A stretch of DNA of 64,000 nucleotides, from contig JAFQSS010000010.1 of assembly GCA_017409455.1 (NCBI GenBank), forward strand, positions 4,696 to 68,695, read 5' to 3'. The DNA comes from Clostridia bacterium. GTDB lineage: Bacteria > Bacillota > Clostridia > TANB77 > CAG-508. Both the position numbers and the translations under genes were made by a program. This document shows positions 39,860 through 53,386 of the stretch, piece after piece; positions within the stretch are counted from its first letter, which is position 1, and every line of letters starts with the position of its first letter. A model generated the notes under the pieces. That model was not told the origin of the DNA, did not search any database, and saw only the letters and a program-made list of their open reading frames with translations.

Positions 39860-39874
39860 TAGGAGGTGTAGAAA

Positions 39875-41419
39875 ATGGCAGATATCAAAGTAAAAGATAT
39901 TGCTAAAAAAAGTATAAAAGCAATAGATAAATCTGCTATTGCAACAGAACGATTTAAAGATACTATTGTTCATACAAAACAAAAGGCAGAGAACACTTAT
40001 AGTGATAATGGAAATGTTTATCAAGATGGTAGTGATAAAATACAATTTATAACAAATAGGGCAGTTGATGAAACTGCCCATAATTTTAATAAGTATGGAA
40101 AAAAAGCATTTGTTGAAACAAAGAAGAATATTAAAAAATCTACTTTAAAGATAAAAGCATTTAAAGAAAACAAACTAGCTGAAAAAAGTATAAAGGGTGC
40201 AAAAGGTGTAAAAGGTGTTGTGAAAAATACCAAAACAACAATTAAAACAAGTAAGGAAGTAGCAAAAAATGCAAAGAAAGTAGCACAACAATCAGTTAAA
40301 GCAAGTCAAAGAGCAGTAAGATTAGCAAGAGAAACTGCAAGAAGAACTGCACAAGGAGTTAAAGTGGCAGTAAAAGCAACAGTTTCTGCAATTAAAGGAA
40401 TAATAGCAGGAACAAAAGCACTAATTGCTGCACTTGTTGCAGGTGGTTGGGTAGCAGTAGTCGTTATTATGGTTATTTGTTTAATAGCATTATTATGCAG
40501 TTCTATATTTGGTATTTTCTTTTCTAGTGAAGATACTGGTGGAACTAAAACAATGAACACAGTAGTTAATGAAATAAATCAAGAAATGGCAAATAAGATT
40601 ACTAATATTCAAAATAATAATACTTATGATGATTATACGATAGATTCAGATCGTGCAGAATGGAAAGAAGTATTAGCAATATATACAGTAAGAATTTCAA
40701 AAGGAATAAATGAAACAGATGTAATAACACTTGACGATAATAAAATAGCAATATTAAAAGAAGTATTTTGGGATATGAATTCTATTTCTTCAGAAGTAAA
40801 AACAGAGAAAATAAAAAATGATGATGGAGTAGAGGAAGAAAAGAAAATATTGCATATAAAAATATCTTCCAAAAGTATTGAAGATATGTCAAAAGAATAT
40901 TCATTTAATACTGCACAGAAAAATCAATTAAATGAATTGATGAGTGAAGAATATGCAAATTTATGGTCATCTGCAATATATGGTAGTCCATTGGGAAGTC
41001 CTAATATTGTTCAGATAGCATTGTCACAAGTAGGCAATGTTGGAGGACAACCTTATTGGAGTTGGTATGGATTTAATTCTCGTGTAGAATGGTGCGCTTG
41101 TTTTGTATCTTGGGTAGCAAATCAAGCCGGATATATAGAGTCAAATATTATTCCAAAATTTGCAGGATGTCAAAATGGTATTGATTGGTTTAAGGCAATG
41201 GGACAATGGAAAGAAAAAGGGTATATTCCAAGAGAGGGTGATATAATATTCTTTGACTGGGAAGTTGATGGAAATGTAAATCACGTTGGTATTGTTGAAA
41301 GAGTAGAAAATGGTAAAGTTTATACAGTAGAGGGAAATTCTACTGATGATATGTGCAGACAAAAAGAATATGATGTTAATAGTAAATATATCTTTGGTTA
41401 TGGCACACCTGCTTATTAA
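39875..41419 (+). CDS. T4SS-associated peptidoglycan hydrolase (TM helix plus C-terminal CHAP/NlpC-P60 domain)
   Basis: Central TM helix. C-terminus has WCACFVSW (catalytic Cys) and NHVGIVE (His). A terminator follows at 41426-41466. Confidence 0.8.
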
Positions 41420-41466
41420 GACAAAAAAAGTAATAAAGTTAGTTGATTCTAATTTTATTACTTTTT

Positions 41467-41492
41467 ATTTTTATATAAAGTTTGACACTTTA
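41467..41492. repeat. 26-bp inverted repeat, left copy (IR-L)
   Basis: ATTTTTATATAAAGTTTGACACTTTA is the perfect reverse complement of 42850-42875. Confidence 0.9.
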
Positions 41493-41688
41493 TTTATACA
41501 AGGTTTTCACTTCTAGCTTTTACAATTATACCATATTTTGTCGAATTTGACATTAATTTAGTGAAAATTTTTTAAATTTTTGAATTTTATATTACAAAAA
41601 ACGATAAATACCGCATTTTGCAAGAGAAAATTAAATATTTTTCAGTCAAAATTCTGGTAATAAATTTTATTAATTAGGAAGGAGAATT

Positions 41689-42780
41689 ATGATGGCAAGA
41701 AAAGGAGAAAACATTTTTAAGAGAAAAGATGGAAGATGGGAAGCGAGATATGCAAAAGAGAGAGATTTAAAAGGAAAAGTTATTAAATATGGATATGTAT
41801 ATGGAAAGAGTTATATAGAAGTAAAAAGAAAAAAGGAGGAGGCGATTGAAAATTTAAAATTTACACAATTGCAAAAGCCAAATATAGATAACACTATTTT
41901 CTCTACGGCTATAATAAGTTGGCTTAATAATAAAACTTCAATAAAAGACTCTACTTTTTATAATTATATTTCAATAATTACTGGAAAGTTAATTCCATAT
42001 TTTAATGAAACAAAGATAACATCTATAAATAAACAACATATATCAGATTTTATAAAAACACTAAAAAGTGAAGAATTAAGCCCTAAAAGAATAAAAGATA
42101 TTTTACTTTTATTAAATCAATTTCTTGAAGATAATGAAATTCATATAAAATTTGATTATCCATCTTTAAGTAAAAACAATATATCAACTTTTAATAACAA
42201 CGAGATTCATATCATTGAAAGTAATGCTTTAAATACAGAAGATATAAAAAAATTTGCAATATTATTAACATTATTTACAGGAATGAGAATTGGTGAATTA
42301 TGTGCATTGCAATGGAAGGATATTGATTTAGAAAACAAGGTAATTCATATAACAAAAAATATAATAAGAACGAAGTCAAAACTTAATGCTAATTCAAAAA
42401 CAATTACAAAAATAGATGTGCCAAAAACAGCAAGTTCTATAAGAGATATTCCAATTAACGATGTATTAGTATCTTTTTTAGAAAAGTTTAAACAAGAAGA
42501 TAACAAATTCTTACTAACTGAAAGAGAATATTATATGACACCTAATCAATATTATTATTTTTATAGAAAATATATAAAAAGTTTAAGATTAACTGATTAT
42601 AATTTTCACGCAATTAGACATACTTTTGCAACTCGTTCATTATCTTTTGGGATGGATGTAAAAACATTAAGTGTTATTTTAGGGCATACAAGTATAAAAA
42701 TAACACTAGATTTATATGTTCATATTACAGAAGAAGAAAAAAGAAAACAAATAAATAAGATTCCTTTGTTATCTGCATAA
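41689..42780 (+). CDS. tyrosine recombinase (phage-integrase family) with an AP2-like N-terminal DNA-binding domain
   Basis: N-terminus FKRKDGRWEARY. Catalytic region GMRIGELCAL, HAIRHTFAT, LGHTSIKITLDLYVH. Confidence 0.85.
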   Translation: MMARKGENIFKRKDGRWEARYAKERDLKGKVIKYGYVYGKSYIEVKRKKEEAIENLKFTQLQKPNIDNTIFSTAIISWLNNKTSIKDSTFYNYISIITGKLIPYFNETKITSINKQHISDFIKTLKSEELSPKRIKDILLLLNQFLEDNEIHIKFDYPSLSKNNISTFNNNEIHIIESNALNTEDIKKFAILLTLFTGMRIGELCALQWKDIDLENKVIHITKNIIRTKSKLNANSKTITKIDVPKTASSIRDIPINDVLVSFLEKFKQEDNKFLLTEREYYMTPNQYYYFYRKYIKSLRLTDYNFHAIRHTFATRSLSFGMDVKTLSVILGHTSIKITLDLYVHITEEEKRKQINKIPLLSA

Positions 42781-42849
42781 TTAGTAGTCAAATTTTTAGT
42801 ATGAAATTAGAAAAAAACGCAGAAATAAAAGGATTTTTCAAAAAATATT

Positions 42850-42875
42850 TAAAGTGTCAAACTTTATATAAAAAT
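42850..42875. repeat. 26-bp inverted repeat, right copy (IR-R)
   Basis: TAAAGTGTCAAACTTTATATAAAAAT is the reverse complement of IR-L. Confidence 0.9.
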
Positions 42876-42959
42876 TATTATTACTATTAGTATGTACGGA
42901 ATAGAAAGGATTAATACACTTATAGCTCTTTTAGTCAAAAGAAAAGGAGGAGGTTATAT

Positions 42960-44276
42960 ATGGCTAAAAACAAGAAAATCCTACTTATGGTGGGCGCTAT
43001 TGCGTTAGTTGTCGTAGTTGCTTTGATTTGTCTATTCGCATCTAAAGAAGATGAAAAAGCAATTTATACAGTAACGTTTAATAGTAATGGTGGTAATGTA
43101 ATTTCTGAGCAAAGTGTAGAAGAAGGAATGACTGCCACAAAACCACAAGATCCCACTAAAGAAGGTTATATTTTTATTGAATGGCTGTTAGATGGAAAAA
43201 GTTATGATTTTAGCAGTCCAGTAAATAAAAATATAATTTTAAGAGCAAGTTGGCAAGAGGAAACTCCTGAAAAAGAACTTGTTACAATTAAGTTCAATAC
43301 TGATGGAGGAACAACAATTGCAAATGCTGTTATCGAAAAAGGTGGTAAGGTAGAGAAACCATCTGACCCAACAAAAGATGGATATACTTTTGTTGAATGG
43401 CAATTATCTGGTTCAAAATATGATTTTGATAAAGAAGTTACCGAAGATTTAGAATTAGTTGCAAAATGGGAAAAAAACAAAACAGAAAATAAACCAAGCA
43501 CAAATAAACCAACTACAAATAAACCAAGCAACAACAATTCTGGAAACAACAATTCTGGAAATAATAATTCTGGAAATAATAATTCTGGTGGTAGTACTAC
43601 ACCTACAACACCAACAACTCCTACAACACCTACTGTAAAAAAATATACAGTATCATTTGACACAAAAGGTGGTAGTAGTGTAGCTAGTCAAACAGTTGAA
43701 GAAGGTAAAAAAGCAAGTAAACCATCTGACCCAACAAGAACTGGATATACATTTGCTGGTTGGACATTAAATGGAAGTGCTTATGACTTCAACTCAGCAG
43801 TAAAAGGCAATATTACATTAGTTGCTAAATGGACTGAGAATCCAAAAGCAAAATATACAGTATCATTTGACACAAAAGGTGGTAGTAGTGTAGCAAATCA
43901 AACAGTTGAAGAAGGTAAAAAAGCAAGTAAACCATCAGATCCAACAAGAAGTGGATATACATTTGGCGGTTGGACATTAAATGGAAGTGCTTATGACTTC
44001 AATGCAGCAGTAAATGGAAACATTACATTAGTTGCTAAATGGAATGCAAAATCTTATACAGTAAAAGTAAGTGCAGTAGATGATTATTCACCTGCAAGAA
44101 TATTAAGTGTTTATGAAAATGGCAGTAAAATAAGTGTAAAAGAAATTAGATATAGCGATGGAACTTATTTATGTTCAGGTGCAAATCCTAATGTTAATAA
44201 GAATGCTATTGCTGGTGAAACAAGTTTAATAGTTGTTTTAAGTGATGGAACACAAATGACTGCAAGTATTAATTAA
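42960..44276 (+). CDS. membrane-anchored surface protein with four Listeria-Bacteroides-type (Flg_new) repeats
   Basis: N-terminal signal anchor. Four copies of YTV.F...GG......V.EG....P.DPT..GY.F..W.L.G..YDF. NNSGN and TPT low-complexity linker. Confidence 0.75.
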   Translation: MAKNKKILLMVGAIALVVVVALICLFASKEDEKAIYTVTFNSNGGNVISEQSVEEGMTATKPQDPTKEGYIFIEWLLDGKSYDFSSPVNKNIILRASWQEETPEKELVTIKFNTDGGTTIANAVIEKGGKVEKPSDPTKDGYTFVEWQLSGSKYDFDKEVTEDLELVAKWEKNKTENKPSTNKPTTNKPSNNNSGNNNSGNNNSGNNNSGGSTTPTTPTTPTTPTVKKYTVSFDTKGGSSVASQTVEEGKKASKPSDPTRTGYTFAGWTLNGSAYDFNSAVKGNITLVAKWTENPKAKYTVSFDTKGGSSVANQTVEEGKKASKPSDPTRSGYTFGGWTLNGSAYDFNAAVNGNITLVAKWNAKSYTVKVSAVDDYSPARILSVYENGSKISVKEIRYSDGTYLCSGANPNVNKNAIAGETSLIVVLSDGTQMTASIN

Positions 44277-44292
44277 GGAGGAAAAGTTAAAT

Positions 44293-46401
44293 ATGAAGAA
44301 AAGTTTAAAATGTTTATTTGCATTTGGAGTTCTCTTTTTAATGAACTCCGCTGTTGTAAATGCAAAGAGTATAGAACCATCTGACATTCCTAACAATTCA
44401 TATGTTATTGGTAATTATGTGTTTTCTGAAGAAACAGTTTTAACAACAAAACACATTATGCTTGCCTCTAAAACAATTGAGGGAGATAGTTTAGATGATA
44501 TGATTATTTATTATAAAACTCCAAGAGGACAATGGATAGATGGTCTTTCAGGAGAAACACAAGAAGTTCCAGAAGATTTTGAAATTGACAAAATAGATGG
44601 CGAAAGAGTGTTAGAAGATGTAAAAATCACTAGCAAAGAATTCGATGGAACATCAGAAGATAATGAAGTAGTTTATAAATTATTAACTGATAAGGAAATA
44701 GGAGATGGTATTGAAATATATTCATCTGACTCAATTGATGGAGATTATACTTTAATCAATACTACTGATGGATATGAAAATATCAGAGTTAGTGTATTAG
44801 ATAATACTAAAAAGTATATTAAAATTAGAGCTTATGAAGGAACACCAGAAGATAGAGCATATGGAATGCTTTCAGAGGCAATAGAAATTGACCAAACTAA
44901 TATGAGTGAAAATACTAAAATTTCAAATATTGAATTTGGAGCAGTTGATGAAAATATAATTACATTAACTATAAACGAAGAAGTTGGAGATGGATTCATT
45001 ATTTATAGTTCTGATACAAAAGACGGAGAATATAAATATGAATATGAATTTGATTATACATCTGAACAATTTACAAACGGAAAAGTAAATTTTGATTTAA
45101 GAAATACTACTGATGGAACAAAAAAATACTTTAAAGTAAAAGCATATAAAGATACTGATTCAACAAGAGTATTTAGTGCTTTATCTGAAGCTTATGGTAT
45201 TTTATTAGATGATATAGAAATTACTAGTAAAGAATTTGATGGAACATCAGCAGATAACGAAGTAGTTTATAAATTATTAACTGACAAAAAAGTAGGAGAT
45301 GGAGTTGAAATATATTCATCTGATACAAAAGACGGAGAATATACTTTAATTAACACTACAACAGGTTATGACTTTATCAGAGTTAGCGTATTAGATAATG
45401 CTAAAAAGTATATCAAGATTAGAGGATATGAAGGAACACCAGAAGATAGAGTGGGTAGTGGTTTTTCAGAGGTTATAGAAATTGACCAAACTAATATGAG
45501 TGAAAAAGCAAAAATTTCTAATATTGAATTTGGAGCAGTTGATGAAAATATAATTACATTAACTATAAGTGAAGAAGTTGGAGATGGATTCACTATTTAT
45601 AGTTCTGATACAAAAGACGGAGAATATAAATATGAATATGACTTTGAATATAGTTCAGAACAATTCTCAAACGGAAAAGTAAACTTTACTTTAAGAAATG
45701 AAGCAACAGGAACAACAAAATATTTCAAAATAAAAGCATTTAAAGATAATGATACAACAAGAGTATTTAGCGAATTATCAAGTGCTTATGGAATAATATT
45801 ACAAGACATAGAAGTAACAGGAAAAACATTTGATGGGACATCAGCAGATAACGAAGTAGTTTATAAATTATTAACTGATAAAGAAGTTGGAGATGGAGTT
45901 GAAATATATTCATCTGACTCAAAAGATGGAGAATATACTTTAATCAATACTACATCAGGTTATGACTTTATCAGAGTTAGTGTATTAGATAACACAACAA
46001 AATACATCAAAATTAGAGGATATCAAGGTTCAACATCAGAAGATAGAGTATATGGTGGTTTTTCTACACCAATAGAAATCGACCAAACTAATATAAGTGA
46101 AAACATTGAAATATCTAATATAGAATATGGTGTAGTTGATGAAAATATAATTACATTAACTATAAACGAAGAAGTTGGAGATGGATTCATTATTTATAGT
46201 TCTGATACAATTGATGGGGAATATAAATATGAATATGATTTTGAATATAGTTCAGAACAATTCTCAAATAATAAAGTAAACTTTACTTTAAGAAATGAAG
46301 CAACAGGAACAACAAAATATTTCAAAGTAAAAGCATTTAAAGATAATGATACAACAAGAGTATATAGTGCGTTATCAAGTGCTAGTGAATTAAGTTTATA
46401 A
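44293..46401 (+). CDS. secreted protein with three 198-aa tandem repeats (each made of two Fn3/Ig-like modules)
   Basis: Signal peptide ending VNAKS. Exact 594-bp DNA periodicity (marker GAAGTAGTTTATAAATTATTAACTGA at 44665, 45259 and 45853). Confidence 0.75.
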   Translation: MKKSLKCLFAFGVLFLMNSAVVNAKSIEPSDIPNNSYVIGNYVFSEETVLTTKHIMLASKTIEGDSLDDMIIYYKTPRGQWIDGLSGETQEVPEDFEIDKIDGERVLEDVKITSKEFDGTSEDNEVVYKLLTDKEIGDGIEIYSSDSIDGDYTLINTTDGYENIRVSVLDNTKKYIKIRAYEGTPEDRAYGMLSEAIEIDQTNMSENTKISNIEFGAVDENIITLTINEEVGDGFIIYSSDTKDGEYKYEYEFDYTSEQFTNGKVNFDLRNTTDGTKKYFKVKAYKDTDSTRVFSALSEAYGILLDDIEITSKEFDGTSADNEVVYKLLTDKKVGDGVEIYSSDTKDGEYTLINTTTGYDFIRVSVLDNAKKYIKIRGYEGTPEDRVGSGFSEVIEIDQTNMSEKAKISNIEFGAVDENIITLTISEEVGDGFTIYSSDTKDGEYKYEYDFEYSSEQFSNGKVNFTLRNEATGTTKYFKIKAFKDNDTTRVFSELSSAYGIILQDIEVTGKTFDGTSADNEVVYKLLTDKEVGDGVEIYSSDSKDGEYTLINTTSGYDFIRVSVLDNTTKYIKIRGYQGSTSEDRVYGGFSTPIEIDQTNISENIEISNIEYGVVDENIITLTINEEVGDGFIIYSSDTIDGEYKYEYDFEYSSEQFSNNKVNFTLRNEATGTTKYFKVKAFKDNDTTRVYSALSSASELSL

Positions 46402-46454: not shown

Positions 46455-46703
46455 TTAATCATCTATATTTTCTGGTAAGAATAAATCACTATCAAAAAAG
46501 TCTTTCTCTGAAATCTTGACTGTTTTGCATATTTGATGAATTACATAAGAACTAGGATTAGAAACTTTTAATGATAGCATATCTTGCAATGTAGATGGAG
46601 CAACGGCAGAGAGTTCTGCTAATTTGTTAGGAGTAATTTTATTTTTATCACATAATTCATAGATTCTTTTACTAATTGCTTCTTTAAATAACAAAATACA
46701 CAC
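46455..46703 (-). CDS. XRE-family HTH regulator
   Basis: ISKRIYELCDKNKITPNKLAELSAVAPSTLQDM HTH. The start may be the TTG at 46694 (GAGG is 8 nt upstream) rather than the GTG at 46703. Confidence 0.7.
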   Translation of the reverse strand: MCILLFKEAISKRIYELCDKNKITPNKLAELSAVAPSTLQDMLSLKVSNPSSYVIHQICKTVKISEKDFFDSDLFLPENIDD

Positions 46704-46723
46704 CTCATTTCTTATAATATTTT

Positions 46724-46787
46724 AACGGAAATCCGCATAAATTATTCACGGATATCCGTTGACTTTGAGATGAAGTGATGTTATAAT
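46724..46787 (+). promoter_or_regulatory. 12-bp inverted-repeat operator overlapping a consensus sigma-A promoter
   Basis: AACGGAAATCCG (46724-46735) pairs with CGGATATCCGTT (46749-46760). TTGACT (46759-46764), 17-nt spacer, TATAAT (46782-46787). Confidence 0.6.
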
Positions 46788-46802
46788 AATAATATCAATT
46801 AA

Positions 46803-46841
46803 GCAGTACATTTTTTTATATAGGTGTACTGTCTTTTTTTT
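46803..46841 (+). terminator. intrinsic terminator ~15-55 nt downstream of the 46782 promoter
   Basis: CAGTACA..TGTACTG stem followed by a T-run of eight. Confidence 0.55.
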
Positions 46842-46932
46842 CAAAAAATACTTGGGGAAATAGATTGAAAAATATAATAGTATTACTGACTGAAAAGAAG
46901 TTGATATTTTAAATAGATAGTGAGGAATAAGA

Positions 46933-47655
46933 ATGGAAGAAATAATAATGTTAGGTATGATTTTAGTGTTTATCTTAATAATTATAATAATCTGGATTAA
47001 AGAAGATAAAAACTATCATAAAGAAATGGAAAAAAGAGATTCAGAGTTTGACCAACACAAATTATGGTTAGAAAAACAAAAGAAAAGACACGATCGTATG
47101 GTTTTAGAGGGGTATGCTTATTATGAGGATGATATTTATAACTATAATGATATAGAACTTAATGATGAATATGATAAAGAAATAAAAGAATATAAATTCA
47201 TAATACAAAAAAATCTTCCTAGATTTGAGTCAAGTAAGAAGATTAAAGTATTAGTAGGAGATTATGATTTGATGTCTATATCTAACACCATAACCGTTTT
47301 AAAGAGTATGGGAATTACAACAAAAGCAGCTAGAAGTGGTAGAGAAATAATAAAAAGAATTATGACAGGGGAAAAATATGATTTAATAATAACCAATAAT
47401 GTATATACAAAAGGTAATTGTGATGGACCGGAAACATTAGATGAATTAAGAAAAATAGAGGGTTTTAATACTCCTGTTGTAGTTTTAACTGTTTCGAGTG
47501 GAAAAAGACATTTATTTATGGGAGAGTATGGATTTGATGAATATATGTGCAAATTATTAACACAGGAACAAGTTATAGAAACATTACCAAAGGTTATTAA
47601 GGATTTAAAATTTACAAAAGTAGAAGAACAAAAAAAAGAAAGCAATAAGTCATAA
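46933..47655 (+). CDS. membrane-tethered receiver-like (pseudo-REC) domain protein
   Basis: N-terminal TM helix. CheY-like beta-alpha pattern (KVLVGDYD, YDLIITNN, PVVVLTVS, DEYMCKLL) with Asn at the phospho-acceptor position. Confidence 0.6.
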   Translation: MEEIIMLGMILVFILIIIIIWIKEDKNYHKEMEKRDSEFDQHKLWLEKQKKRHDRMVLEGYAYYEDDIYNYNDIELNDEYDKEIKEYKFIIQKNLPRFESSKKIKVLVGDYDLMSISNTITVLKSMGITTKAARSGREIIKRIMTGEKYDLIITNNVYTKGNCDGPETLDELRKIEGFNTPVVVLTVSSGKRHLFMGEYGFDEYMCKLLTQEQVIETLPKVIKDLKFTKVEEQKKESNKS

Positions 47656-47658
47656 GAT

Positions 47659-48108
47659 TTATTGCTTTTTTCTGCCTAATAATTCATCAATAGAAAAGTG
47701 TTTATATATTCGTGTTAGATTATACAGAAATGCAGTAGGGATTAAATTGACTGCATTTTCATAATGAGCATAAGATGCTTGTGTAGTATTTATTTTTTCT
47801 GCAACTTCTGTTTGAGTCATTTTGTTGTGTTTTCTTAATAAACGCAAGTTTTTTGCGATTAATTCCAAATCTATAATTAAATGCTCATATTTTATATTAA
47901 ATCTTGTTATTCCAAATAAATAATCTAAACTATAACCGAAGTTATTTGAATATTCAATTAGCCTTTCTAATGGTATTGTATCTTTACCGGTTTCCCATCC
48001 TGAAACAGTAGAGAAGTGAACTGAAAAATAATCAGCAATATCCTTTTGTTTTAAATCTAATAATTCTCTACTTTCTTTAAAGTTTTTAACAATCATTTTA
48101 TTCATCAC
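47659..48108 (-). CDS. tandem-HTH XRE-family repressor (Tn916 orf9-like position)
   Basis: Two HTH_3-like units (QKDIADYFSVHFSTVSGWETG and QTEVAEKINTTQASYAHYENA). Divergent from the sigma-like gene. Confidence 0.75.
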   Translation of the reverse strand: MMNKMIVKNFKESRELLDLKQKDIADYFSVHFSTVSGWETGKDTIPLERLIEYSNNFGYSLDYLFGITRFNIKYEHLIIDLELIAKNLRLLRKHNKMTQTEVAEKINTTQASYAHYENAVNLIPTAFLYNLTRIYKHFSIDELLGRKKQ

Positions 48109-51296: not shown

Positions 51297-51617
51297 GTGG
51301 GGAGAGATGATGTTTATAAAACAATTAAAAATATGACCTTAGAAGAACTTATTTCAATGTTTTGTACCAACAAAGTTGAGGTTGTAGAGAAAATAGAAAA
51401 AGTAGAAATAGAAGATAGTAAAGTCTTTTATACGATAAATGAGTTAATAGAAAAGTATCCATTTTTTACTAGATACAACATAAATAAGGCAATTCAAAAT
51501 GGTGGATTACCTTATTGTTTTATAGGAAGAAAAAGAATGTTTAGCAAAGAAGAAGTAGAAAATTGGTTAGAAAAAGAAACTAAACCTAAAAAAGAAAAAA
51601 TTAAATACGATATTTGA
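51297..51617 (+). CDS. xis: excisionase-type helix-turn-helix protein
   Basis: FYTINELIEKYPFFTRYNINKAIQNGGLPYCFIGRKRMFSKEEVENWL is an excisionase/MerR-type HTH. Lies immediately upstream of int. Confidence 0.75.
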   Translation: MGRDDVYKTIKNMTLEELISMFCTNKVEVVEKIEKVEIEDSKVFYTINELIEKYPFFTRYNINKAIQNGGLPYCFIGRKRMFSKEEVENWLEKETKPKKEKIKYDI

Positions 51618-51631
51618 TTGGAGGAATTAAA

Positions 51632-53386
51632 GTGCAAGAAAAAGTTGAAAAATATATTTATTTTGTTTCAGAGAATAGATACAGAGTTAAATTTTTAAAA
51701 GTAGATAAAGCAAAAAATAAAAGAATAAATTTTAATCAATATATAAATGGTAGTTTAGAAGATGCAATAAAATTAAGAGATGAAAAACTAAAAGAAAATG
51801 GTATTTCATTAAATGATGAAAAAAAGTCAGATGATATATTTGAAGAAAAAGCCCCAACCAAGAAGAAAGAAACAAAACCTAAAAAGGAAAGAAAACCTGC
51901 TGTAAATCAAGCAACTAATAAAGTTGATAAATATATATATGAAATAGAAAAAGGAAAGAAATATAGAATATTTATTAGAAAAGGTGGCTCAAATGGGCAA
52001 AAAGGAGATTATTATTCAGCAGTTTATGAGGGAACATTAGCACAAGCAAGAAAGGAAAGAGATAAAAAACTTGCAGAATTAAAATTAAAAAATGGTAAAG
52101 GCGATAAAGGTAATATAAGATTTGTAGAGTTTGCCAGAATATATTATAAGGAATATGCAGAAAAAGAATTAAGTCCTACTACTGTTACAGGTGGTAAAAC
52201 TACATTAAAAAACTATGTGCTACCAGAAATCGCCAATATGCCATTAAATAAAATAGATGCTTTAACTATACAAAGAATAATAAATAATTTAAAAGAAAGA
52301 GATAAAGAAAGATTAGACAAAAATGGAAATGTAGTTAAGTTATCACCAACAAGTGTGAATAATGTGTATAGATTACTACGAAAAATACTAAATAAGGCGA
52401 TAGCTTGGGATTATATAGAAACTAATCCTGTATTAAAAGTAAAAGCACCGGGAGTAGCAAAAATAGAAAAAGCATCATACAACAGAGATGAGTTAATAGA
52501 GATATTAGATATATTAAAGAAAGAAGATCCTTTAACAGAAACTTTATTTACTATATCTATATGCACAGGAGTTAGACGAGGAGAGTTAGTAGGATTACAT
52601 TTAGAAGATATTGATTTTGAAAATAATATGATAAATGTAAAAAGAGCAGTAGTATGGGACAAAGGAAATCAAAGAATATTAGAAAAAGCAACAAAAACAA
52701 AAGGTAGTGTCAGAGAAGTACCTGTTCCATTATTCTGTATGGAAGTTATTAAAGAATATTTAAAGTTAAGAGAAAGAGTGATATATAATTTTAAAAGAAG
52801 AAATAGAAATTATATACCACCAAGAAACTTATTTTTAAGTAAAACAGGTGGAATAATGTTTCCAGATACACCATCTAGCAAATGGTTAGATTTTAGAAAG
52901 AGAAATCCACAAATTAAAGATGTATCACTACACGGATTAAGACATAGTTATTGTTCAATGCAAATGAATGAGAATCCAAATTTATCACCAGCAGATGTTA
53001 AAAAGTTAATGGGACACTCTCAATTATCTACAACATTTATATATACACACTCAAATGATGATAAGACAGAGGAGGCAATATCAGTATTTGAAAAATATTA
53101 TAATTTCAATGGCGAAAAGAAAGTTAATTTTAATGAAATGTTATCATTATATACAAGAGTAAAATTTACTACCACAACTATAATAGAAGAATTATTAGAT
53201 TTTGTAGTTGATACAGATGATAGTGATGAAAGCAAATATGATGTAATAAAAGATTATATAGATAAAAGATACCCTATATTTAAAAAGATAAATGTATCAG
53301 ATGTTAATATAGAAAATGTATGGGACTGGTTAGAAATGAAAAAGAAACAATATGGTGATGAATTCTTATTATGTCCTATAAAATAA
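51632..53386 (+). CDS. int: tyrosine integrase (Int-Tn916-like) with duplicated N-terminal arm-binding domain and C-terminal extension
   Basis: The GTG at 51632 lies 7 nt after GGAGG. The TTG at 51614 is less likely. Catalytic GVRRGELVGL, HGLRHSYCS, MGHSQLSTTFIYTH. Confidence 0.88.
   Translation: MQEKVEKYIYFVSENRYRVKFLKVDKAKNKRINFNQYINGSLEDAIKLRDEKLKENGISLNDEKKSDDIFEEKAPTKKKETKPKKERKPAVNQATNKVDKYIYEIEKGKKYRIFIRKGGSNGQKGDYYSAVYEGTLAQARKERDKKLAELKLKNGKGDKGNIRFVEFARIYYKEYAEKELSPTTVTGGKTTLKNYVLPEIANMPLNKIDALTIQRIINNLKERDKERLDKNGNVVKLSPTSVNNVYRLLRKILNKAIAWDYIETNPVLKVKAPGVAKIEKASYNRDELIEILDILKKEDPLTETLFTISICTGVRRGELVGLHLEDIDFENNMINVKRAVVWDKGNQRILEKATKTKGSVREVPVPLFCMEVIKEYLKLRERVIYNFKRRNRNYIPPRNLFLSKTGGIMFPDTPSSKWLDFRKRNPQIKDVSLHGLRHSYCSMQMNENPNLSPADVKKLMGHSQLSTTFIYTHSNDDKTEEAISVFEKYYNFNGEKKVNFNEMLSLYTRVKFTTTTIIEELLDFVVDTDDSDESKYDVIKDYIDKRYPIFKKINVSDVNIENVWDWLEMKKKQYGDEFLLCPIK

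Follow-up and report, generated by a model that had tools for sequence, protein, structure and literature searches.

Within a 64,000-nt stretch of the Clostridia bacterium contig JAFQSS010000010.1 (the whole stretch is called the window below), an integrative conjugative element (ICE) carries a 1,409-bp segment that is bounded by two inverted repeats and encloses a tyrosine recombinase gene (Table 1). The left repeat (IR-L) is ATTTTTATATAAAGTTTGACACTTTA at 41467-41492 (+) and the right repeat (IR-R) is its exact reverse complement at 42850-42875; the sole substantial open reading frame (ORF) between them, 41689/41692-42780 (+), is that of the recombinase. On the left, the segment adjoins the end of the conjugation operon, the last gene of which encodes a 514-aa CHAP hydrolase. 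On the right, the distance from the end of IR-R to the ATG of a surface-protein operon at 42960 is 84 nt. We interpret the segment, in the following called the cassette, as a self-contained phase-variation switch of the element, in which a putative promoter (P_out) directed outward through IR-L would serve the surface-protein operon after inversion. The probability of this reading is in our estimate about 60%.

A preliminary description of this DNA had already recognized the 26-bp repeats, the 1.4-kb segment between them and the recombinase as its only gene, and all of this was borne out. No further copy of the repeat with up to 3 mismatches was found in the window, the chance expectation being 0.00 (100 shuffles), and the ORF matches the Pfam families Phage_integrase (9e-25) and Phage_int_SAM_3. 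An imperfect extension brings the repeat to 42 nt (83%; 41456-41497 / 42845-42886). The inner 17 nt of IR-L (41476-41492) form the palindrome TAAAGT-TTGAC-ACTTTA, with weaker half-site symmetry to ~10 nt per arm (TATATAAAGT-TTGAC-ACTTTATTTA). As a palindrome of two half-sites, each repeat arm would be a full core site for two recombinase monomers. For tyrosine recombinases, the orientation of the sites decides between inversion and excision; the asymmetric centre (TTGAC / GTCAA) together with the inverted placement of the sites thus gives a substrate geometry for inversion rather than excision. No target-site duplication was evident at the repeat borders, no Xis gene or second ORF was found inside the cassette, and megablast of 41300-43100 against the plasmid collection gave no match. 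The sequence TTTGACA at 41546-41552, formerly described as a partial third half-site, is present, yet it is not conserved in relatives and was dropped as a third recombination half-site.

Inversion of the segment between its repeats

The exact recombinase was found on 8 metagenome contigs, and the four that were inspected all had the arrangement of the window. In a second lineage (P0001; 14 contigs from several JGI and ENA samples), which encodes a 98%-identical recombinase, the cassette was flipped between the same neighbours in 10/10 inspected contigs. In blastn comparison with P0001, window positions 39864-41492 aligned in reverse (94.8% identity), 41467-42875 forward with 98.0% identity over exactly 1,409 nt, and 42850-44188 again in reverse (90.1% identity). 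These aligned parts overlap at 41467-41492 and 42850-42875, which places the junctions within the repeats. A third lineage (L180-L185, 6 contigs checked) has a 92% identical cassette that is likewise flipped, with the same junctions as P0001. Among the more distant relatives, L175 (79%) and L176 (78%) were flipped and L177 (70%) was in the state of the window; L175 and L177 lie beside a Flg_new gene, and the neighbour in L176 has no Pfam match on record. Altogether, 4/6 lineages of the element family were assembled with P_out toward the surface genes. The segment is thus invertible, as had been proposed from its repeats: both orientations exist in nature, and the breakpoints lie exactly in the repeats.

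The shapes of several contigs point to mixtures of both orientations inside single samples. L176 (MEGAHIT k141) carries a 119-nt exact inverted terminal copy of its own left flank and repeat, so that the 5' untranslated region (UTR) of the surface gene is joined to both cassette ends, and L062 shows the same flank on both ends of the cassette as a 99-nt inverted duplication. The Logan contigs L178 and L179 consist of the cassette alone, with ends 0-9 nt from the repeats, and a 1,424-bp contig of the isolate Clostridium aminobutyricum DSM 2634 (L051) ends exactly in its repeats. For 19 of the 120 best protein clusters, the longest contig was 1.3-1.5 kb. We are highly confident that inversion is programmed and performed by the encoded enzyme; the co-conservation of enzyme and sites suggests that it acts on these particular sites.

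The recombinase was previously given as 363 aa long. The in-frame ATG at 41689 required for this length exists, whereas public gene calls start at 41692 and yield 362 aa; on exact look-up the 362-aa form was on record and the 363-aa form was not. Across 25 relatives the catalytic residues R199, H306-x-x-R309, H332 and Y342 are invariant, as is much of the first 45 residues. The best solved relative in a phmmer search against the Protein Data Bank (PDB) was the Tn1549 integrase (Int) 6EMY (1e-19). The same structure was the top Foldseek match (3.5e-12), and full-length lambda Int ranked after the Tn1549 Int structures. The AlphaFold model (mean pLDDT 85; block means 66-86 over residues 1-60) predicts an N-terminal domain (residues 8-59) made of strands 8-10, 16-24 and 30-38 and helix 41-59, and a beta-hairpin insertion in the catalytic domain (strands 223-227 and 238-242). 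An N-terminal domain of three strands and a helix, together with a catalytic beta-hairpin insertion, characterizes the IntTn916 subgroup, whose members are arm-binding recombinases (PMC8138268). By sequence and fold the enzyme is IntTn916-like, with a predicted arm-binding-type N-terminal fold.

None of the NCBIfam models reached its cut-off for the recombinase. Membership of the FimB/FimE-type tyrosine DNA invertases was rejected, since both curated models stayed far below their cut-offs (NF007370, 23 bits vs 221; NF007371, 20.6 bits vs 222). The Hin/Gin/Cin/Pin serine invertases were rejected as well, since only tyrosine-recombinase families match. The enzyme thus belongs to another family than Hin, and it is also distinct from the integrase of the ICE, a separate 590-aa protein encoded at 51614-53386 that is 22.6% identical to the cassette enzyme over the catalytic part; both distinctions had been made before.

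A direct repeat of the motif nGTCAAA occurs in leader and trailer of at least 25 cassettes, one copy 25-95 nt upstream of the start codon and the second no more than ~20 nt downstream of the stop codon; in the window these copies start at 41645 and 42787, and there and in close relatives they form the two conserved blocks AGTCAAAATTCTGGTA and AGTCAAATTTTTAGTA (Table 1). The blocks are candidate arm-type sites for the conserved N-terminal domain. Counted on both strands (GTCAAA/TTTGAC), the hexamer has 7 copies in the 1.8 kb around the cassette, the density in the window being 0.56 per kb. Among these 7 are one copy in each core-site centre (41481-41486 and 42856-42861), one at 41546-41551, and one at 42934-42939, which lies outside the cassette just upstream of the ribosome-binding site of the surface gene and is conserved in 4/5 relatives.

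Table 1 Features of the cassette and its flanks (positions in the window)
Feature	Position	Strand	Basis or remark
Bidirectional intrinsic-terminator-like hairpin	41425..41466		18-bp A+T stem, U-runs on both strands, abuts IR-L
IR-L, putative complete core recombination site	41467..41492		Exact repeat, inversion breakpoint inside
Conserved block TTTCACTTCTAGC, would-be first transcribed bases of the outward transcript	41505..41517	-	Relatives with 70-98% identical recombinase
P_out, putative outward promoter opposite to the recombinase gene	41525..41553	-	Extended -10 TGgTATAAT = 41533-41525
Candidate arm-type or operator site 1, AGTCAAAATTCTGGTA	41644..41659	+	Conserved block ~20 nt upstream of the recombinase ribosome-binding site
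Tyrosine recombinase gene, 362 aa (363 aa from ATG 41689)	41692..42780	+	Pfam, alignment, AlphaFold model
Candidate arm-type or operator site 2, AGTCAAATTTTTAGTA	42786..42801	+	Repeats site 1 in direct orientation, first base 6 nt downstream of the stop codon
IR-R, putative core recombination site in inverted orientation (TAAAGT-GTCAA-ACTTTA)	42850..42875		Exact repeat, breakpoint
Spacer and 5' UTR of the surface-protein operon	42876..42959	+	Gene-proximal part including the ribosome-binding site conserved
Target gene 1, membrane-anchored, four Flg_new (Listeria-Bacteroides) repeats	42960..44276	+	ORF and Pfam
Target gene 2, secreted/surface, signal peptide, three ~200-aa repeats	44293..46401	+	ORF

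A putative outward promoter and the ON/OFF assignment

P_out is the best promoter match in the whole cassette (10/12 plus TG) and is directed outward through IR-L. It comprises a -35-like ATGTCA (41553-41548), a 17-nt spacer and a TATAAT with upstream TG, and includes the conserved upstream block TTCGACAAA (41545-41537). Among relatives with a 70-98% identical recombinase, the leader is poorly conserved save four blocks. One of them, AATTATAnCATAnTTTGTCGAA, reads TGnTATAAT on the minus strand and is kept in 5/5 relatives apart from the free n (G, T, T, A). On the + strand, no promoter of at least 9/12 was found in the leader (41493-41688). In the wider family, 45 outward extended -10 motifs were present in 41 of 78 cassettes, compared with 10.2 +/- 3.0 (maximum 21) in shuffles, which corresponds to a ~4.4-fold excess. 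Their density was 2.9 per kb, whereas gene bodies had 0.25-0.44 per kb; 30 of these motifs are located 20-50 nt inside IR-L, and the outward strand of the trailers contained none.

What P_out meets outside the cassette depends on the orientation. In the window it would run into the bidirectional hairpin one base beyond IR-L. This hairpin closes the conjugation operon; its folding energy is -18.4 kcal/mol for the + strand (z = -4.4) and -12.8 kcal/mol for the opposite one. A terminator directly before IR-L had been postulated, and folding supports it; a simple terminator scanner called no terminator at all, this hairpin included, because its stem has no G-C pairs. In the flipped lineages, P_out would read through the repeat and the 84-nt spacer to the surface operon, with a 5' UTR of ~135 nt. 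Neither terminator scan nor folding gave a terminator-like structure in 42775-42965, and no canonical promoter was found in 42876-42959, where just one 9/12 match straddles IR-R. This agrees with the preliminary description, which saw neither a terminator between the recombinase stop codon (42780) and the first surface gene nor a convincing promoter in the spacer. The conserved TAATACACTTATAGC block was rejected as a fixed promoter of the spacer, as it lacks the terminal T of the -10 element. The genes beside IR-R are indeed surface/secreted-protein genes, encoding a Flg_new-repeat protein and a signal-peptide repeat protein, and have no canonical promoter of their own.

According to the mechanism that we propose, the IntTn916-type recombinase would bind the two inverted palindromic core sites (~10-nt half-sites with an asymmetric centre), and its conserved N-terminal domain, of the arm-binding type, would probably contact the directly repeated nGTCAAA copies on either side of the gene. 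The entire 1,409-bp cassette would flip when the core sites recombine. P_out, ~30 nt inside IR-L, would transcribe outward and divergently from the recombinase gene. In the window orientation this transcription would end in the terminator at 41425-41466, and the operon (42960-46401) would receive at most weak read-through; after inversion, P_out, then ~50 nt inside the operon-side repeat, would transcribe through this repeat and the 84-nt spacer into the operon, which would then be ON. The window orientation is more likely the low or OFF state.

Several points speak against this interpretation. The assignment of ON and OFF derives from promoter motifs, and we favour the flipped state as the high-expression state with some reserve. 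The DNA is A+T-rich (28% G+C), and a scan of the region gave 13 promoter-like matches vs 14.0 expected, so that the case for P_out comes from its conservation and not from the match itself; the strict criterion detects it in just 41/78 cassettes. In each lineage the contigs that were checked (4, 10 and 6) were assembled in one orientation. Switching may be infrequent, and heterogeneity within samples is seen just indirectly, via the shapes of contigs. The role of GTCAAA as an arm site is a guess, and in the window further copies of the hexamer lie within the core sites, with one more ahead of the target gene. A Pfam search with the N-terminal 80 aa of the recombinase returned no domain; Pfam misses the arm-binding domain in some members of the IntTn916 subgroup (PMC8138268). 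Finally, no terminator follows the recombinase gene, and read-through into the operon in the window orientation could be a real ON state or a second level.

The last point leads to the logic favoured in the preliminary description, in which read-through from the recombinase gene drives the operon, the window orientation is ON, and the flipped transcript ends at the terminator 41425-41466 (OFF). P_out would then be irrelevant or serve an antisense or autoregulatory RNA. We regard this alternative as rather unlikely. It gains from the open path between the stop codon (42780) and the operon, from the co-directional orientation of 64/84 genes located 3' of recombinase genes, with (+,+) vs (-,-) contexts of 35 to 13, and from inward extended -10 motifs that in some relatives cluster 39-51 nt ahead of the start codon. 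It also gains from a sub-group of cassettes (L098, L100-L102, L105 and L113) with a short leader of 76-85 nt and no outward promoter, in which a LytTR response-regulator gene always follows the recombinase gene. By its layout this sub-group may be a read-through variant of the switch, and read-through logic would thus exist somewhere in the family. At the locus itself, however, no + strand promoter of at least 9/12 is present in the leader, close relatives share little of the leader sequence ahead of the recombinase gene, the GTCAAA block excepted, and the strongly footprinted promoter is directed the other way, outward via IR-L. Furthermore, recombinase genes are usually weakly expressed, which would make this one ill-suited to drive two large surface-protein genes. 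Both routes may also be combined in a low/high switch. The presence of P_out showed no clear association with the flank context, and the census of relatives described below cannot decide ON vs OFF.

A family of related cassettes

The cassette does not stand alone; it is a member of a large family found beside many kinds of genes. Scans of species-representative genomes and metagenomes for relatives of the recombinase yielded ~160 loci at 31-43% identity, hosted by Oscillospiraceae, Lachnospiraceae, Ruminococcus, Butyricicoccus, Lacrimispora and three Enterococcus species. The metagenome scan with the single protein gave distant relatives alone (up to 43% identity) and no close ones; its loci entered the census of the family but did not serve to compare orientations within the lineage. 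For a census of the repeats, 105 non-redundant loci with enough flanking DNA were scored with a cut-off of at least 15, and 400 non-cognate left/right pairs served as control. Flanking inverted repeats were present in 87/105 relatives (median score 22) vs 6/400 control pairs. The left arm lies mostly 150-280 nt before the start codon and the right arm 40-120 nt after the stop codon; cassettes are 1.2-1.7 kb and repeats about 15-33 nt long, so that the 26 bp shared with hix, to which the preliminary description had pointed, is coincidental. The sequences of the repeats vary between cassettes, a common type being TTTCGCAGAGT-n5-ACTCTGCGAAA, and nearly all arms are palindromes of two ~9-12-nt half-sites around a 3-7-nt centre. 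Orientation differences occur in three further unrelated cassette lineages (L124/L128/L131 opposite to L126/L129/L136, L009 to L007, and L014/L017 to L012).

Flank contexts were divergent in 25 cases, convergent in 3 and co-directional in 48, the latter with 35 parallel and 13 antiparallel to the recombinase gene. From the ratio of divergent to convergent contexts it follows that the 5' end of a neighbouring gene almost always faces the cassette. These statistics agree with an outward transcription feed from the cassette.

A number of relatives have particular surroundings. In L014 (2380-6769), L017 and L012 (38% identity), the cassette directly follows the NlpC/P60-CHAP hydrolase gene of a conjugation module and is followed by a YpsA/SLOG gene, L012 being in the flipped state; cassettes seem to be found repeatedly at the end of the conjugation operon. 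In L124, L126, L128, L129, L131 and L136 (repeat TTTTCGCAAAATTATTGATTTGACGA), the cassette is linked to the gene of a 1,092-aa SNF2/ResIII helicase, the longest ORF of which begins 8 nt inside the repeat, and both orientations were found on three contigs each. An identical cassette with the repeat TTCGTAGAGTACATTACTCCACGAA is present in Butyricicoccus pullicaecorum DSM 23266 (L047:4803-7400) and Clostridium sp. AF27-2AA (L055), in both cases 350-450 nt upstream of a gene for an Erm-type rRNA adenine methyltransferase (Pfam RrnaAD, 1.9e-82). From this arrangement, a phase-variable macrolide-resistance gene common to two genera is possible. A third or tandem copy of the core site was observed 39-105 bp from one end in L016:3549-5069, L018:4607-4728, L022:6193-6310 and L029:3015-3126; such a copy would permit alternative inversions or small deletions in the manner of a shufflon.

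The position of the family beside unrelated genes suggests that cassettes have spread, and one could regard the cassette as a minimal transposon of the Tn916/Tn1549 type, for which excision as a circle and re-insertion would explain the two orientations and effects on neighbours would be incidental. We consider this improbable. The closest solved relative is indeed the Tn1549 transposase-integrase, family members often lie in accessory regions of mobile elements and near large serine recombinases, their scatter implies that cassettes moved during evolution, and cassette-length contigs would also come from multi-copy elements. Nevertheless, all 24 inspected contigs with cassettes of at least 92% identity hold them at one position, between the CHAP hydrolase and Flg_new genes, with the breakpoints inside the repeats and the flanks unchanged. 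Both ends are complete two-half-site palindromes, whereas an integrated Tn916-type element would have a single inner arm at each end, and inverted sites with an asymmetric centre give inversion rather than excision. The missing Xis gene and target-site duplication also count against a transposon, as does the avoidance of convergent contexts (3 vs 25), which is unexpected under neutral insertion. Membership of the Tn916-type tyrosine transposons was thus rejected on the single insertion context of the 24 contigs, the full palindromic ends and the lack of a second ORF. A search via surface-protein homologues for an empty site, i.e. the element without the cassette, led to one inspected context (P0122), where the cassette was present as well.

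Very improbable is a fossil, that is, one or more ancient chance or homologous inversions around a degenerate integrase remnant without programmed switching today: the single assembled orientation of each lineage would fit, but the repeats are perfect while the flanks diverged by 5-10%, the cassette (98%) has diverged less than its surroundings, no catalytic residue varies in the family, 83% of relatives from different bacterial families keep the architecture, at least four unrelated cassette lineages show both orientations, the palindromic end duplications on contigs imply both states within one sample, and 26 bp are too short for efficient RecA-dependent inversion.

Some further observations concern the target genes and their surroundings. 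The linkage of the cassette to Flg_new genes is kept in the relatives L175, L177 and L180. The product of target gene 2 has 702 aa and no Pfam match; its homologues in sister elements have 350, 506, 702 or 966 aa (L085:1310-2362, L087:842-2362, L180:3338-6238), so that variation in repeat number adds to the orientation switch. In the 79% relative L175 (1-1492), the second cassette-adjacent gene encodes dockerin domains in addition to Flg_new repeats, which suggests a cellulosome-producing (rumen-type) host for this branch. Downstream of the surface genes (46455-48108) lie a small minus-strand HTH_26 gene, the gene of an orphan response regulator (46933-47655) and an HTH_3 gene. This trio is kept in all three lineages of the element and may regulate the element or the switch.

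Relation to known inversion systems and meaning

The comparison with the Salmonella Hin/hix switch made in the preliminary description holds in part. As in Hin/hix (and Gin, Cin and Pin), the recombinase gene lies inside a segment with short terminal inverted repeats next to surface genes, and a segment-borne promoter would drive the neighbouring operon for surface antigens in only one of the orientations. Hin belongs to the serine recombinases and depends on a Fis-bound enhancer, whereas the cassette enzyme is an IntTn916-type tyrosine recombinase. The placement of the promoter also departs from the proposed likeness: the output promoter of Hin lies downstream of hin in the same direction, and that of the cassette upstream of the recombinase gene and divergent from it.

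In E. coli fimS with FimB/FimE and in the Clostridioides difficile RecV switches (cwpV, flgB, cmrRST), a tyrosine recombinase inverts a promoter-bearing or regulatory element (PMC5903667, PMC2784873, PMC5386303). Short inverted repeats, a tyrosine recombinase and ON/OFF surface phenotypes are common ground with the cassette. These recombinases, however, are encoded outside of their 150-300-bp switches and RecV serves many sites, whereas the cassette has its own enzyme inside, private sites, candidate arm sites and an integrase of the three-domain type. To our knowledge, FimB/FimE and RecV have not been reported to carry an arm-binding domain.

By sequence and fold, the Tn916/Tn1549 integrases are the best match, with the same three-domain layout, and they are likewise found on conjugative elements of Firmicutes (PMC8138268; PDB 6EMY/6EMZ/6EN0). 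They excise and integrate large elements, use Xis and have ends with one inner arm each. In the cassette, by contrast, two complete inverted core sites bracket the recombinase gene alone, and inversion is what was observed.

Type I restriction-modification hsdS shufflons, such as SpnD39III of S. pneumoniae with creX/psrA, embed a tyrosine recombinase gene between inverted repeats, which is carried along upon flipping (PMC4948785, PMC7672463). Unlike the cassette, they recombine the coding sequence of hsdS target-recognition domains, move no promoter, have their repeats inside genes and use another type of recombinase. A putative fimbrial switch of Providencia stuartii (844 bp, 14-bp repeats), predicted from read data, encloses a recombinase ORF and thus resembles the cassette as an invertible segment with its recombinase beside surface-structure genes (PMC5903667). 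It is a single proteobacterial locus in an unrelated sequence context that was likened to E. coli/Photorhabdus fimbrial switches, without a description at the family level. We found no description of the cassette family in the literature; many subscription papers lay outside this search, so that a prior description is possible.

Altogether, the segment is truly invertible and probably a phase-variation switch, and it belongs to a large, apparently uncharacterised family of self-inverting recombinase/promoter cassettes on clostridial mobile elements. With evenly balanced confidence we propose that the family is an undescribed, widespread class in which a heterobivalent (arm-binding) integrase of the IntTn916 type has become the invertase of its own gene, forming a portable phase-variation module. 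The package would consist of two private palindromic core sites, arm sites flanking the ORF and an outward promoter, and its neighbours comprise, among other genes, those for surface adhesins, erm, SNF2 and HA-domain helicases and LytTR regulators in many Clostridia species and Enterococcus. In the current view, arm-binding tyrosine recombinases are the integrases of phages and conjugative elements, and inversion is left to 'simple' tyrosine recombinases (PMC8138268). An autonomous class of arm-binding invertases would, if true, contradict this division of roles, and the cassette provides a test case for the re-use of an arm-binding integrase in inversion.

Units of 1.2-1.7 kb with an internal recombinase may escape inverton surveys that are tuned to short intergenic promoter flips, and the cassettes break assemblies. 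Each one-gene recombinase comes with a private pair of sites, so that the family represents a natural library of potentially orthogonal inversion tools. A switch in front of erm, of helicases that are maybe involved in defence, or of regulators would give heterogeneous resistance or defence phenotypes that are hidden in consensus assemblies. The cassette-adjacent surface proteins are probably adhesins or mating-contact proteins. If the proposed logic is true, conjugative elements in Clostridia of gut and rumen switch their own surface proteins by phase variation, which would affect host range, exposure to immune system and phages, and transfer.

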